Below are positions 4,085 to 52,619 of a stretch of DNA of 64,000 nt, one piece after another. The DNA is from Octopus vulgaris. Its lineage: Eukaryota. Below the pieces are notes generated by a model, which saw nothing but the letters and a program-made list of their open reading frames with translations, was not told where the DNA came from and did not search any database. Position 1 is the first letter of the stretch. Each line of letters begins with the position of its first letter. The stretch covers positions 18,662,001-18,726,000 of the forward strand of contig OX597835.1 in NCBI GenBank assembly GCA_951406725.2, written 5' to 3'. The translations under genes were made by a program, and so were the position numbers.

Positions 4085-5311
4085 CAGGTGTTCGACAAAA
4101 TAATGGAAGCACCATAATATTTCAAAAAAATTATTTCAATATGGGGTAGGACCGCCTTTGGCAGTAATTTTAGCTTAAATTCTACGAGGTATGGTCTCGT
4201 ACAAAGTTTGAATTTTTCCAAAGGTATTTATGTCTATTCTTCAGTTAAACAGTCTCCTGTACTTGATGATGGTGGAGGATATCGAGTCTTTATTTGTTTT
4301 TCTAAAATGCACCATTAATGTTCAATAATATTGAGATCTGGGGACTGTGGTGGCCAGCTAAGATTTACAACTTCACTAGAATGTTCCTCGTGCTATTCAG
4401 TAACAAATTTAGCTGTGGGAATTGGTGCATTATCATCCTGAAAGATTGCATTTTTCCCCCGGAAACAGTTCCGCAACCATAAGATCAATTTCATCAGATA
4501 AAATGCTTAAATAGTCTTGTCTCTTAAGTCTGCCATTGGGTGGATTTCCAAGATATAGCCCCGCAGATTATCACAGATCCTCCTCCATGTTTAGCAGTTG
4601 GTAGAAGGCAGTCTGGCTCACATGCTTCTTATGGCTGTGCCCACGCATATACTCGGCCGGTGGTCGGAAATACGGTAAAGGATGACTCGTCCGCGAAAAT
4701 AACATTCTTCCACTGCTCTAGGGATCAATTCCGTTGGTTTTTACTTCATTCTAGACTCTTTGCAACGTTTGTTTTTGAATGTAGTGGTTTTCTGATTGCA
4801 GCCCTCCCGTGAAATACGGTTTTGTGCGGCTTCCAGCGAAGAGATTTTGCGGAAACTGGGTTCTCGAGGTGGTCATTGAGTTCTGCACTAATTCTGGGAA
4901 CTGTACTTTTGTAATCGTCTTTAACAATATGCGTAACAATCCGATGGTCCCTTTCTGAAAGGTTTGATTTTCTTCCGGAGTTTGTGCGGCATTTCCCTCT
5001 TTCTCAAAGGCTGTCATTACTTTCAAGGCAATACTTCCTGATACCCCAAATATTTCAGCTGTTTTCGTTACGCTAGTGCCTGATGATGCAACATTTTGAA
5101 CTTTTCGAAAGTACGATATATCTATCATTCTAATGAATTTTAATTACCTTTTTCTGATGACATCTGAAAAGAAGGAGCAATATTAGCAACTCTTATTAGC
5201 AACACTGATAATAAATAAAAAAACTAAAAATAAACAAGCTTTTGAGGATTTTATAGATATTTCAAAATTATGATTTTTTCCATTAGTTTCCTTTATTTAG
5301 TCCAGCCCCTG
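4085..5311 (-). mobile_element. Full-length decayed Tc1-like DNA transposon with DD36E spacing (Incomer-like)
   Basis: TA flanks at 4083-4084 and 5312-5313. Imperfect ~26-bp TIRs CAGGTGTTCGACAAAATAATGGAAGC / CAGGGGCTGGACTAAATAAAGGAAAC. Minus-strand motifs WKNVIFADESSF, FQDDNAPI and WPPQSPDLNIIE, with 36 residues between the second D and E. Contains stops and frameshifts. Confidence 0.92.
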
Positions 5312-19596: not shown

Positions 19597-19624
19597 TAAT
19601 ATACATATATATACATACAGCGAT

Positions 19625-19940
19625 TTTAGAAATAGCAGTCAAAAAGTCTTGGCTATTCCTCCTACTTTAAAGGGAGACCCCAGTAAAACCAAAGCACTGG
19701 TTTGTTCTTGAGTGCTTTGGTTTTACTGGGATCTCCCTTTAAAGTAGAAGAAATAGCCATGACTTTTTGACTGCTATTTCTAAATTCGGTGTGTGGTGAG
19801 GCAAATCGTTGCTGAACCCTAATTACTTAGTATTACATAAACTTACCTTGAATTGGTCTTTTACATGCCGAATTCTACTTGGTGAAATTACTGATTACTT
19901 CTTAATTAATTAATTTCACCCTTTGTTATTATTGATATAT
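19625..19940 (+). repeat. 160-bp palindrome (19625-19784) running into a structured (TA)n-abutting repeat terminus
   Basis: Arms 19625-19698 and 19711-19784 are reverse complements around a 12-nt loop. Followed by helices P1 and P2 (see findings). Confidence 0.8.
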
Positions 19941-22878: not shown

Positions 22879-23738
22879 ATAAATATACTGAGGTGTTCGC
22901 CATAACACATCCATTACCCAAATGTAAATCAGTTTAATGTTGACCTATAAGAAAGTAGGTATTGTGCCTCCATGGCATAAGCGACTAAATATCTTCGGCT
23001 ATGAATGAATTCGTCTGGAGGTCGATCTGGATCTCATTTGTTAAGAATCACTCATATTTGCTTTCCATGAATATATACAGAGAAATACGATTAGTGTAAT
23101 TGATATTATACATAAGGTAAAGTCATATTCTAAAAACATTGGTATATTTTCAGAAGGTAATTTGTTTTAAAAGAAAAACAGTTCATTACAAACATTTATC
23201 ATATATACGAATTCTAAATGTTGAGTAACATATTTTTGAAACTAATTTCAAATTTAACTACAAATTGATGTGTTTCAGGAAGCTATATATTTAACTCTAA
23301 TGATGCAAATTTAAATAAAAAATCATATCCATACAAATTACTCATCATCATCATCATCATCATCATCATTATCGTCGTCGTCGTCGTCGTCATCATCATT
23401 ATCATCATCATCATTTCTTAAATATGTATTAACTGCTATTTGCAATGTTGTAGATGTATATTATCATCATTAACTTTCTAACAAATATACATTAAACTCA
23501 TTATTTTCGTGATATTTATTTTCTCTTTCTATATTCAAACATACATGCATTCAAATGTGTATATATATATATATATATACACATTCTCCAGAAAAGACTC
23601 CGACCTATCACGCGAAGATATTGATATCACATTAGCAGCTCGCTGAACTATCATACTGTTCAATGGGCAAACCTGTGCCCGCAAGAACACACCACCCTTT
23701 TTCGATATCTCTATGGGGGTCTATGACTCCGCTCAAGT

Positions 23739-23849
23739 TACAGATGCCCAACCTCCTGTTCCTTAGATAGTAGCTGTACCACCTAAAACACCGTTTACAA
23801 GTGTACAAAATCTCATAAAACTCTCTCGCTCTCTCTGTGTCAGTGAGGT

Positions 23850-23883
<34 letters not shown>

Positions 23884-24153
23884 CTCGTGCATCACTAACT
23901 TCAAAGCTAGAGTTGGAAACCACTACTCTAGCTTGAAGTCACAATCAAATTCCCAAAGTACATCTTTATCTCAGCTTATCCACAAACTAAAGAAAAATTC
24001 ACCCACGCCAATCCATACAGCGACTATAATAACAAATGCAATCTCTGCATAGCTGAACACTTAGCTATTGTGCATTCCACAGATTGGCTTAATGAAAGTG
24101 AAAGCATAATTTTTACCTGTTAACATCGGTTGCGCAAACTATTCTCAGAATAA
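23739..24153 (+). pseudogene. Penelope-like element C-terminal GIY-YIG endonuclease remnant
   Basis: RCPTSCSLDSSCTT*NTVYKC ... IYIGSCITNFKARVGNHYSS...TSLSQLIHKLK ... PYSDYNNKCNLCIAEHLAI...LNESESIIFTC*H matches the PLE EN pattern C..C.(LDG)C...VYKC / YIG..F K.R..NH..S / C.LC..EK..I...LN...E....CRH. Confidence 0.85.
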
Positions 24154-24579
24154 AGTTAACATCTCACCCCGTGCATCATTCCCCCATCAGCCTTTAGAAA
24201 CATTCCCCTTTATTTACCCACACAACCACCATATATTAAGCCACCAATATTATCCCAATACATTCCCTTTAACTATTTACTCTCGTTTACATATTTCTTT
24301 ACGGTTAATACCCTTTTTGTTCTAGTATTTCACCTGTCTCCTCTCCACCTAGCCATTTGTAAACTTACAAGTACATACGCCGGCATATACCTCTGTTCAC
24401 ACAAACAACGTACATTCCTCTATTGATAGCTTTTAATAGTTACAATTATTCGCCATTCTCTCTTCAATTCCAATTCTAATCTACCTCATCCCTTCAAGCA
24501 TACATGACCACATATATTTCTCTACCTTCTTCCCTCGACATTATCTGCTTTTCGAATACCACTCACCTTGATGATATAA

Positions 24580-24695
24580 TATGAGTGTTTATTGTGGTAT
24601 TATAGCTGTTTTGACTGCTATTTCTAGATATATGAGGGCTTTATAACCTTCCCCGTTATCATTATGATTTATTCACAATTATACACTCTTCTTTG

Positions 24696-24698
<3 letters not shown>
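24580..24698 (+). mobile_element. PLE-type terminal repeat ending in (TA)n
   Basis: Lies ~430 bp downstream of the GIY-YIG remnant in the same orientation and ends TTGAAA(TA)n. Inverted copies begin at 25618 and 27276. Confidence 0.7.
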
Positions 24699-25176: not shown

Positions 25177-25237
<61 letters not shown>

Positions 25238-25376
25238 CGGAATTCAAACTGTTTCCACGTTTGCGATCCAGAAACATATGTCCGCTATTAACGGTAAGTG
25301 ATTGAATTCGTATATTTGCCACTCCGGTTTTGTGTATGTGAGCCGTAAGGGCCTTCGTTTTTGGATTCTCCACTTA

Positions 25377-25600
25377 TAGAAATTGGAAAAACGGTCTTTG
25401 ACTGCCATTTCTAATTCCTTCGGTATGAGGTGAAACAGCCTGCTGTTAGCCTTCTTATTTTTTCTTTACTATATACTGAACCTTACAAAGGTCTTGACAA
25501 TTAATTTGTCGTATTTACATACCGAAATTTACCGGTAAATAATTGTTGGTTACATGATAAACCACAGGAAAATTATTTACCATTTTTATTGAATTATATA
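25377..25600 (+). repeat. Structured (TA)n-abutting repeat terminus (three-helix motif)
   Basis: TAGAAATTGG/CCATTTCTA, TTCGGTATG/CATACCGAA and GGTAAATAATT/AATTATTTACC, then TTGAATTATATA. Confidence 0.65.
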
Positions 25601-25617
25601 AATATATATATATATAT

Positions 25618-26010
25618 TTCAAAGAAGAGTGTATAATTGTGAATAAATCGTAATGATAACGGGGAAGGTTATAAAGCCCTCATATATCTAGAAATAGCAG
25701 TCAAAACAGCTATAATACCACAATGAACACTCAATTATATCTCCTCAACATTAAAAGCTGTCGGCAATCGACATGACATAAAAATTAAAGGTTATTCCTC
25801 TATTGCAATTTCGAAGTTTGGAAACAAAAATAAGTCCATTCTTCTCGTCAGGAGAACATTCCTGTTCATAGAAATTAACACTAAAAACATGTTGCTTAAC
25901 AAGTGTCTCAACTGGTAAGAACAACGTATCAACGTCTATCTACACAATTCAAATTCTGAGTTCAAATGTCGTGCACAGCGTTTATAAGGAGAGACCAGTT
26001 AAACGGACCG
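25618..26010 (-). mobile_element. PLE-type terminal repeat (inverted relative to 24580-24698; direct repeat of 27276-27590)
   Basis: ttcaaagaagagtgtataattgtgaataaatc...ctagaaatagcagtcaaaacagc is shared among the copies. Confidence 0.75.
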
Positions 26011-27277: not shown

Positions 27278-27590
27278 CAAAGAAGAGTGTATAATTGTGA
27301 ATAAATCATAATGATAACGGGGAAGGTTATAAAGCCCTCATATATCTAGAAATAGCAGTCAAAACAGCTATAATACCACAATACACACTCATGTTATATC
27401 TCCTTAACATTAAAAGCTGTCGGCAATCGACATGACATGAAAATTAAAGGTTATTCTTCTATTGCAATTTCGAAGTTTGGAAACAAAAATATCAAAAAAC
27501 AACGTATCAACGTCTATCTACACAATTCAAATTCTGTGTTCAAATGTCGGGCACAGCGTTAATAAGAAGAGACCAGTTAAACGGACCACG
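27276..27590 (-). mobile_element. PLE-type terminal repeat (copy of 25618-26010 with an internal deletion)
   Basis: Direct sequence match; a further diverged copy lies at ~27745-27880. Confidence 0.75.
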
Positions 27591-27890
27591 TCGAAGAACA
27601 GTGACAAATAATTAATAAAAGTGGAATGGATGTAAAAAAAAACATTACACCAGACGTATCGTAAATAATTCAAAAGGATTTCCGAATATATCAGGGGCCA
27701 GAGCATGCAATAAACAATGTCTTCATAAAACAAAAACAATATATAAATGTGAATAAATCACAATTATAACGGAGAGAGAGCTATAAAAAACCCTTAAATG
27801 TCTAGAAATAACAGTCAAAGCAGTTATTGGGACACTTAAATACTCCTATCTCCTCAAATATAAAAACAGTCGGCCAGCAATACAACACAA

Positions 27891-27954
<64 letters not shown>

Positions 27955-28013
27955 AAAATATTATTGGTGAATTGAAGAAATGGAGCTGAACGCAGATTGA
28001 ACAGAAATCGTTT

Positions 28014-28106
28014 TATTTCATTCTACACGTGTTTCGAAAGGCACAATTTACCAAAATCCGATTGAATAATGGGACCATATTGTGTCTTTCTCTTCAGGAA
28101 GAAATA
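28014..28106 (-). ncRNA. Type-I minimal hammerhead ribozyme with intact core (PLE pseudo-LTR type)
   Basis: Minus strand: TATTTCTTC-CTGAAGA-GAAAGACACAAT...ATTGTGCCTTTC-GAAAC-ACGT-GTA^-GAA(T)GAAATA. Stem II is 12 bp with one mismatch, loop III is palindromic ACGT, and AATAAA and (TA)n follow. Confidence 0.85.
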
Positions 28107-33413: not shown

Positions 33414-33631
33414 AAAGGGCTTAGTATATATGTATATGTATATTTTATGTATGTGTATATATATATGTATATATGTATGTATATATGGTATATATATATA
33501 TAAATAAATATTCAATATATATATATATTATATATATATGAAAATATATATATATTAGATGTTTTAAAAGTTTTTAGTGCATTTCTGAGTTCAGTATGCG
33601 GCAAATATTTATTTTCTAAGCCCTTTTATAT

Positions 33632-33669
<38 letters not shown>

Positions 33670-34498
33670 TATATAGCTGATACTATATATATATCTTTAT
33701 ATTGACCAAGCTATATGATATTCGTATGCCAAAGTAATTTTTTACTAAGCCTTTATATATTAATAATTTGAATTCGCCTTATATACTATATATAATATAC
33801 ATACATACATACACACACACACAGACTGATGAATTTGTTTTACCAGATTCCTGATGTGAAATCGTCTATTTGAATAAATATTGTTATACTTTGTGGGGAT
33901 GGTCACAGAAGTGGTAAGAGAAGTATGACAAATAAACTAAAAATAATAAATCTAAACAGAATATGAGTTAAATAGAGTGTACGTTTAATAAGCAACATAT
34001 GACAATAACCAAATGTATTAATTCATATAAAATAATGGTTTTACATTTCGGCCCCCTCATAAAATATTTCTGCCAGAAAGCCAGATATTTTGTAGAACGA
34101 TGGAAATCGACTCGTTTATATCGACTCCAATATTTAAGAGGTAACTTTTTTAGTGATTCGAGATGATGAAATGCTAAGTTGATAACGGTAGACATGAACT
34201 CAAAAAGTAAAGCTTCCCAAGAAAAACCGCTATGCATTGTGTGCCAATGCCACGCCTTATATATTTGTATAACAATAATTTTCGTTGTGTTTTAGCAGAA
34301 GGCCAGTAATGTTGAGGGGGAAGAAAACCGATTGTGTCACCCTAGTGCTCTAGTGGCACTTATTTTGTCAATACCAGAAGAATGAAAGGCAGAGCCGAGG
34401 TTTTGAACTTAGAACGTAAATATTCAGAAGAAATATTGTTAGCTATTTTTTCCAGCTTGCTAAAGATTCTACTAGAACATATTGGTAATACTTTAGGG

Positions 34499-45394: not shown

Positions 45395-45448
45395 TCTTTC
45401 GTGAGTTGAGTTGAGCAAACACTATATGAGAGAGGTTTTCTTTAAGTA

Positions 45449-45640
45449 TTAGAAATAGTTTTAAAAAGTTTTTTAGCTGCTATTTCTAATGAGTTCAGTA
45501 TGCGGCAAAGTAATTTATTTTACTAAGCCCTTTTATATAATGTAATAATTTGAATTCGCCTTAAATGGTCCCTTTGCATACTGAACACTTGGTGAAATTG
45601 ATTAATAATTAATTAATTTTACCCTCAATTGTTGAAATAT
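45449..45640 (+). repeat. Structured (TA)n-abutting repeat terminus (three-helix motif)
   Basis: TTAGAAATAG/CTATTTCTAA, GTTCAGTATGC/GCATACTGAAC and GGTGAAATT/AATTTTACC, then TTGAAA(TA)n. Fragments recur at 33411-33785. Confidence 0.7.
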
Positions 45641-51884: not shown

Positions 51885-51963
<79 letters not shown>

Positions 51964-51974
51964 AAGAAGAAGAA

Positions 51975-52619
51975 GAAACAATAAATCATATTATCTCTAG
52001 CTGCCCAGTCCTGGCTAAGAAGGAATATATTCACAGACATGACAGAGTTGGAACTTACATACATTGGAAGCTATGCCAACATTATGGAATAACAACAGAA
52101 AAAAGATGGTATAGGCACACACCAGAAAAGGTCACAGAAAACGAGAAAGCAACCATACTCTGGGATATGCCGATACACACAGATAGAGAAATTAAGGCCA
52201 ACAGACCAGATATAGTTGTCAGAGACCATGAAGAAAAAAAATGCTTTCTAATTGATGTATCAGTACCGGCAGATGACAACGTGTCTCTAAAAGAAATGGA
52301 GAAACTCTCAAAATACAAGACCTGGAAATAGAGGTAACTAGAATGTGGAATATGAAAACAGAAACAATTCCTATCATAGTAGGTGCATTAGGCATGATAA
52401 AAAAATATTCAGACAAATACATAACAAAAACACCAGGACTTACAAACACATATAACATACAGAAAATTGCACTACTAGGCACTGCACACATCCTACGCAG
52501 AACACTTTCCATACAATAACCATCAGAGCATCACAACAAATCACAGCACATACCCAAGGCACACAGAGCTGCGCTCGGTAGTGAAGTGAAAGCACGCTAT
52601 AAAAATAAAACTAAAACTA

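Follow-up and report, generated by a model that had tools for sequence, protein, structure and literature searches.

Metazoan non-LTR retrozymes are non-coding, low-GC tandem repeats whose units each carry a type I hammerhead with a palindromic stem III, whose monomers are predicted to be highly paired and whose mobilisation by Penelope-like elements has been proposed, and the octopus units described here resemble them in each of these respects (PMC7229834; 10.64898/2026.07.22.740005). Our monomers measure 503-578 nt against 170-400 nt, a range that PMC7229834 gives as descriptive and not as defining, and the available portions of both accounts make no mention of a covarying junction domain tied to two end sites. 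The assignment of the octopus units to this class rests on sequence, with cleavage and circles being predicted. The second comparison is with EN+ Penelope-like elements: in vitro, a Poseidon RT starts at two internal stem-loop sites that match genomic tail ends (PMC11167929). With the pLTR or "tail" of these elements, as in Poseidon PAc, the octopus families share two internal RT starts (putative in octopus) downstream of a hammerhead, AT-rich targets, an inverted 5'-truncated second arm and a one-sided tail. They differ in having a tail of ~100-120 nt instead of 30-40, in lacking an ORF and in the starts themselves, which in PAc lie in an AC-rich stem-loop without homology, whereas those of the octopus units are AU-rich, with the potential for pairing to the target (PMC11167929). 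The Hydra clade of Penelope-like elements also targets (TA)n and carries a canonical hammerhead, but it has a short paired hairpin at each end, its loci leave our P1 model unmatched, and the families studied here are without its ORF (PMC8557442). An active Hydra family in the octopus genome, like the retrozyme families, uses two end sites and pairs one of each.

These comparisons bear on two matters: what makes Penelope-like RTs, telomerase's closest mobile relatives, start at particular internal sites, and by what means animal retrozymes are mobilised. The template domain of telomerase RNA holds a single-stranded copying region within a long-range helix, with flanking stems and a related RT; its likeness to the octopus domain is an analogy only, as the latter shows no repeat addition, supported pseudoknot, or sequence or model match. 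The element class is already known, and for the P0-P1-P2 domain we found no earlier description. Nor did we find octopus retrozymes described in the literature, a search outside which lay subscription papers (e.g. Arkhipova 2006) and Repbase/Dfam, which may bear on novelty; the available part of PMC13282606 lists no octopus retrozymes.

The window, a 64,000-nt stretch of Octopus vulgaris contig OX597835.1, contains three segments for which the initial annotation had proposed one common helix layout. This proposal held: the named helix arms are present at 19749-19935, 25377-25593 and 45449-45637, and each segment is predicted to fold into P0, P1 and P2, P1 in turn holding the stem P1a with its purine-rich internal loop, then an AU-rich linker and lastly P1b (fold z-scores of -5.4, -3.8 and -7.0, respectively, with none of 200 dinucleotide shuffles as stable in any of the three). 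The proposed P0 pairing stands as a layout, but in the 25377 segment the arms as written are 10 and 9 nt long and need a bulge, and the MFE structure uses another register. Similarly, P1 does enclose the CCTT..AAWGGTC reported as conserved, but CCTT varies in other subfamilies, and CCTT..GGTC is itself a hairpin of 3-5 bp, P1b, which is missing or altered in some subfamilies; in the 25377 copy it is a different hairpin that MAFFT places opposite P1b. Each of the three segments represents a separate high-copy family, A, B or C.

The family A copy has two arms. Its main arm (19700-19935, +) is 5'-truncated downstream of the hammerhead and contains, all on the + strand, the P0 hairpin (19749-19781; arms 19749-19757 and 19773-19781), whose 3' strand is conserved more strongly than any other sequence in the domain, and P1 (19785-19872; arms 19785-19794 and 19863-19872), within which lie P1a, a stem with a purine-rich 3x3 internal loop (19795-19818), end site 1 (19827-19833, with 15 of 23 short arms stopping at the equivalent of 19833) and P1b (19845-19857). 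The P2 hairpin (19881-19920) follows, and then a tail predicted to be single-stranded (19921-19935), which holds end site 2 and the TA target junction. The (TA)n ending annotated for every segment needs qualifying here, as 19935 is followed by a TA run of about four units and then by TACA repeats. An inverted second arm, also 5'-truncated (19621-19699, -, identified by sequence and fold), ends right past P0, short of the usual site 1, and the two arms form a near-perfect 80-bp palindrome (fold of 19600-19800, -128.5 kcal/mol). At this palindrome (19676-19735) lies the one Rfam hit seen here among the matches listed, a weak miRNA match.

The family B copy retains the 3' half of a hammerhead (25235-25287, +; stem II, GAAA and palindromic stem III, with a predicted cut after 25282), the 5' half of the core being gone by truncation, followed by the domain (25377-25593, +), with P0, P1 (25419-25427/25518-25526), P2 (25534-25581) and end sites at 25475 and ~25593. 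The family C copy (45396-45637, +), 5'-truncated as well, comprises P0 (45449-45489), P1 (45493-45503/45576-45586) and P2 (45591-45623), with site 1 at ~45539-45555 and site 2 at ~45637. Two decayed family C fragments, each stopping near site 1, were also seen at 33600-33790 (+). Because of 5' truncation, the hammerhead is lost from the A and C copies and halved in B; the annotation was right that no hammerhead core lies inside the three segments, but full units carry one ~120-130 nt upstream of P0.

A fourth family, D, is represented in the window by copies that stop at site 1: 24573-24698 (+), 25621-25990 (-), whose hammerhead is intact (core 25851-25845, with cleavage predicted between 25801 and 25800), and 27280-27900 (-), which is preceded by a partial, diverged D unit of approximate extent. 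The first of these had been read, at 24580-24698, as a shorter relative of the three segments; longer family D copies have the full P1 and P2 layout, and this copy simply stopped within P1 at the internal end site. A decayed Hydra-type endonuclease remnant (23869-24138, +) lies 470 nt upstream of it; a TA run separates this remnant from a decayed Hydra-type RT remnant (23580-23742, +). The annotation had pointed out this GIY-YIG neighbour. Among 231 distinct P0-anchored copies, some of them unrelated repeats with the same word, a search with the Hydra profile found an ORF remnant directly upstream, without an intervening TA run, only at 24580, and three further copies were separated from ORF remnants by TA runs; the adjacency at 24580 looks like that of a chance neighbour.

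Throughout the genome (2.8 Gb in 227 contigs), first-look searches returned 2242 candidates for family A, 1146 for B and 223 for C, and among the 40 scored in each family copy identity was 98-100% for B and C and 91-98% for A. A tight P1b-to-P2 pattern gave 4283 matches compared to 446 for the reversed control, and a P0-to-P1a pattern gave 1774 compared to none; few copies were present in 200 kb of unselected genome. Distant families were located by pattern matches and in flanks. Copies take the form of head-to-tail units of ~550 nt, spaced at 547-549 nt in B and 545-560 nt in C, and of back-to-back inverted arms in (TA)n, and one locus holds ten tandem units and an inverted arm. Eight distinct monomers (503-578 nt) could be aligned as one superfamily, in which the domain is by a modest margin the best conserved block (40-column identity of 0.57-0.62, compared to 0.15-0.56 in other blocks and 0.50-0.52 in those of the hammerhead). 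Words of family C are present in five other organisms, and this family appears to predate or cross species splits. Contigs from four sequencing runs span the unit, and two contain the head-to-tail joint, which tandem DNA also yields.

Of 151 copies with a long stretch of upstream sequence, 94 have a type I hammerhead core and its stem I upstream of the domain, 86-137 nt from the P0 anchor, compared to 9 of 1089 control windows; in the other 57 no core was detected. The Rfam model RF00163 (Hammerhead_1) matched family A at 24 bits (E 0.0017), under the gathering score, which none of six loci reached, and the family C hammerhead went undetected by Rfam. Near-identical young copies of family B (e.g. 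L040) have CCGAUGA in place of CUGAUGA in the core. Within arrays monomer directly abuts monomer, and the units code for no protein. Because the units are hammerhead-bearing, tandem and non-coding, families A-C appear to be unusually large non-LTR retrozymes, as this class is defined in PMC7229834 and 10.64898/2026.07.22.740005, and not autonomous Penelope elements. An RT and GIY-YIG ORF between pLTRs, which would mark an autonomous EN+ Penelope-like element, was not found in the families studied. The families do show the inverted 5'-truncated arm, one-sided tail and microsatellite target of Penelope-type insertion. The annotation's idea of a conserved RNA of (TA)n-targeting Penelope-like elements is therefore upheld for the strand-specific fold, the manner of insertion and the position at insertion ends, but not for membership of ORF-bearing elements. 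Rfam comparison of the domain returned no relevant family among the matches listed (150 of 229) or in further scans of the loci. Readings as Naiad or SECIS were rejected, since the units have hammerheads and no ORF; three words of the domain are also absent from the octopus Naiad consensuses in the available part of the PMC8557442 supplement.

Covariation supports the fold in part. A MAFFT alignment of 15 subfamily copies, made without regard to structure, showed double-sided changes at 7 of the 20 P1-domain pairs, a count reached in 2 of 500 shuffles, and 94% of alignment cells were paired, compared to 30-42% in slid controls; across the whole domain 8 of 39 pairs were double-sided among 16 copies (10 of 500 shuffles), figures to be read with the shuffle tests inflated by the relatedness of the subfamilies and with each representative being a single copy. 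The compensatory changes predicted for all three helices were confined to P1, P1a and P1b among 16 close subfamilies; P0 and P2 had one-sided changes only. Since relatedness inflates these tests, we rank the kept layout above the covariation counts. The distant families D, O, H, J and K have the same layout with different helix sequences, with complete helix turnover in D, O, H and J, and this is the stronger argument for selection on the fold. The layout test was passed by 11 of 14 family representatives, compared to 67 of 840 shuffles, and failed by three; for 12 of the 14, folding favoured the + strand. Frequent fold-back junctions, some of which take the place of the P0 5' arm, would suit a view of the helices as neutral by-products of fold-back inversions during Penelope-type insertion; as the helices occupy fixed places in tandem monomers and covary across families, this is the least credible of the readings considered.

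Primary sequence is also conserved beyond the needs of pairing in the P0 3' strand, in the internal loop of P1a and where P1 joins P2. What we take to be an Inr-like word in the 5' arm of family C P1 would fit a reading in which such conserved words act as DNA, either as an internal promoter or as an endonuclease recognition site in the tail, with the helices secondary. Promoters do occur in pLTRs, and recognition by the D. virilis endonuclease depended on the tail (work cited in PMC11167929). Double-sided changes with G-U tolerance on one strand, and the complete turnover of helices under a kept layout, make a role at the DNA level improbable.

Insertions stop at two sites: site 1 lies within P1, in its AU-rich linker, and site 2 in the tail after P2. 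We mapped 23 site 1 arms in family A, 15 of them ending at one base, and 15 in B, 12 at one base, while 19 in C are spread over ~16 bases; site 2 accounts for 31, 18 and 36 arms in A, B and C, respectively. In these counts arms reaching <39 nt past the anchor are excluded, the queries favour long copies, and TA microhomology blurs the mapped ends. No arms of A, B or C stop in the AT-rich P2 stem-loop, three family B arms stop elsewhere, in the next unit, and the other AU-rich loops of the unit are unused as ends. Among 30 loci picked regardless of where they end, 18 do not reach the 3' arm of P1 and 12 extend through P2. Back-to-back pairs combine one site 1 and one site 2 arm in 38 of 43 cases, four being two short arms and one two long; in this tally, some ten arms scored as site 1, those offset by >110, are probably decayed copies put in the wrong class. 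The stretch between the sites is ~100-120 nt, and both contain UA steps. This two-end pattern is that of the one-sided "tail" described for Penelope-like elements (PMC8557442, PMC3846280), whose ends correspond in vitro to two internal RT start sites (PMC11167929).

Alternatively, the domain itself might create one of the insertion ends, as the novel ribozyme that had initially been entertained. The multi-way junction and conserved unpaired purines are of a kind with this, and 97% of cells would allow the P0 loop to pair with P1b in a pseudoknot. We rejected the pseudoknot, as its covariation was not significant (162 of 500 shuffles). No Rfam ribozyme matched among the matches listed, the units already carry a hammerhead, Hydra elements show two ends without the domain fold, and the family C ends scatter over several bases, so self-cleavage by the domain seems very improbable.

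The active Hydra-clade family is our best candidate helper. It has a 708-aa ORF (locus L137:91-2214, +) and 150 scored matches at 94-100% identity, several with full open frames. Its translation fits the published features of the clade (RWK, DKT, a CxCX5C linker, CxxC and CxH), as do its length of <3 kb, hammerhead and (TA)n targets (PMC8557442); the label "Neptune" was rejected, since the motifs are those of Hydra. Pfam scans gave no matches. Its hammerhead core is a variant, CCGAAGA. Insertions of this family in (TA)n end 32-48 or 104-112 nt past the hammerhead cut, and all eight back-to-back pairs use one end of each kind. Hydra elements also carry a short hairpin, GCTC...GAGCACT, usually twice ~62 nt apart before the ORF (metagenome contigs; PMC8557442 supplement). 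It was found in 52 of 62 metagenome loci, compared to 0.8% of shuffles and 6 of 603 ORF windows, and is visible in three of six published Hydra consensuses (PMC8557442 supplement), though undescribed in the available PMC8557442 text. All nine independent TA junctions lie 0-5 nt 5' of this hairpin (chance fraction 0.19 each); two of the 11 rows examined were left out as a single artefact, with a TA run in the reference itself. In the octopus family the hairpin after each end is a variant whose outer pair is swapped. Since a paired hairpin sits 0-5 nt 3' of each end in the Hydra elements of other animals, structure-marked start sites occur in this class of retroelements, and the retrozyme domain is a different, larger fold. 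The P1 covariance model had no match in two loci where the Hydra 3' end was the only one among the families, nor in 25 metagenome Hydra loci, and equating P1b with the Hydra hairpin was rejected as a partial likeness, the strict pattern matching the Hydra family and no retrozyme unit. A second Hydra-type family, seen as a pLTR and ORF start at L084:700-1330 (+), has the GAGCACT hairpin word twice.

We suggest that the covarying multi-helix domain probably acts as the docking and start site for a Penelope-type RT, which would produce the Penelope "tail". A retrozyme unit would be transcribed, cut by its hammerhead, probably as dimers because stem III is palindromic (PMC4209133), and possibly circularised, with P0, P1 and P2 branching from a junction that a long helix closes. 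Acting in trans, a Penelope protein that nicks (TA)n would then dock on the domain. It would prime one cut strand in the linker within P1 and the other in the tail past P2, both of them AU-rich, so that the stretch between the sites becomes the one-sided tail, while run-on copying would give rise to tandem units. Predicted circular folds of four monomers tend to place P0, P1 and P2 as arms at one end of a long rod, clearly for B and C and partially for A and J. Against docking is the absence of the domain from the autonomous Hydra elements examined, which leaves the helper and the recognition element unmatched.

Conservation may also reflect general folding of the circle, because predicted folds of whole monomers are highly paired, branched rods of -144 to -158 kcal/mol, and published retrozyme circles are highly self-paired too (PMC7229834). 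With UA steps at both sites, base pairing to the nicked target could be enough to position the ends. The helices would then be a compact retrozyme fold, with the ends being accessible UA-rich strands that pair nicked (TA)n without specific protein recognition, and the mismatch with Hydra elements would be expected. We consider this unlikely, though a serious competitor, given the letters kept beyond pairing needs, the strict one-of-each pairing of ends and the other AU-rich loops that are not end sites. The docking model may be taken further, and here we are only tentative: the P0-P1-P2 junction could be a dedicated, telomerase-template-like RT-loading domain that holds UA-rich strands open inside P1 and after P2, allowing a Penelope dimer to prime both (TA)n strands on one RNA circle. 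If true, it would be the first defined cis-element for retrozymes hijacking Penelope proteins in animals, and a portable signal to write a chosen RNA into TA microsatellites. Thousands of young copies with a covarying domain bracketing both starts lend themselves to mutational work in the in vitro assay that already exists, and the intact ORF of the active Hydra-clade family in the same genome encodes a candidate enzyme.

Several other repeats were detected alongside these families. At L324:2539-2760 (+), a different repeat has the conserved P0 3'-strand word followed by unrelated sequence and is possibly a SINE-like element that shares or has captured this word. Another hammerhead-bearing element, with a short tail into (TA)n, lies in the window at 27910-28090 (-) and has a relative in locus L083. 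The window also contains two ORF remnants, one at 51936-52331 (+) resembling what we take to be a restriction-like LINE endonuclease and one at 4751-5143 (-) resembling a Tc1-type transposase.
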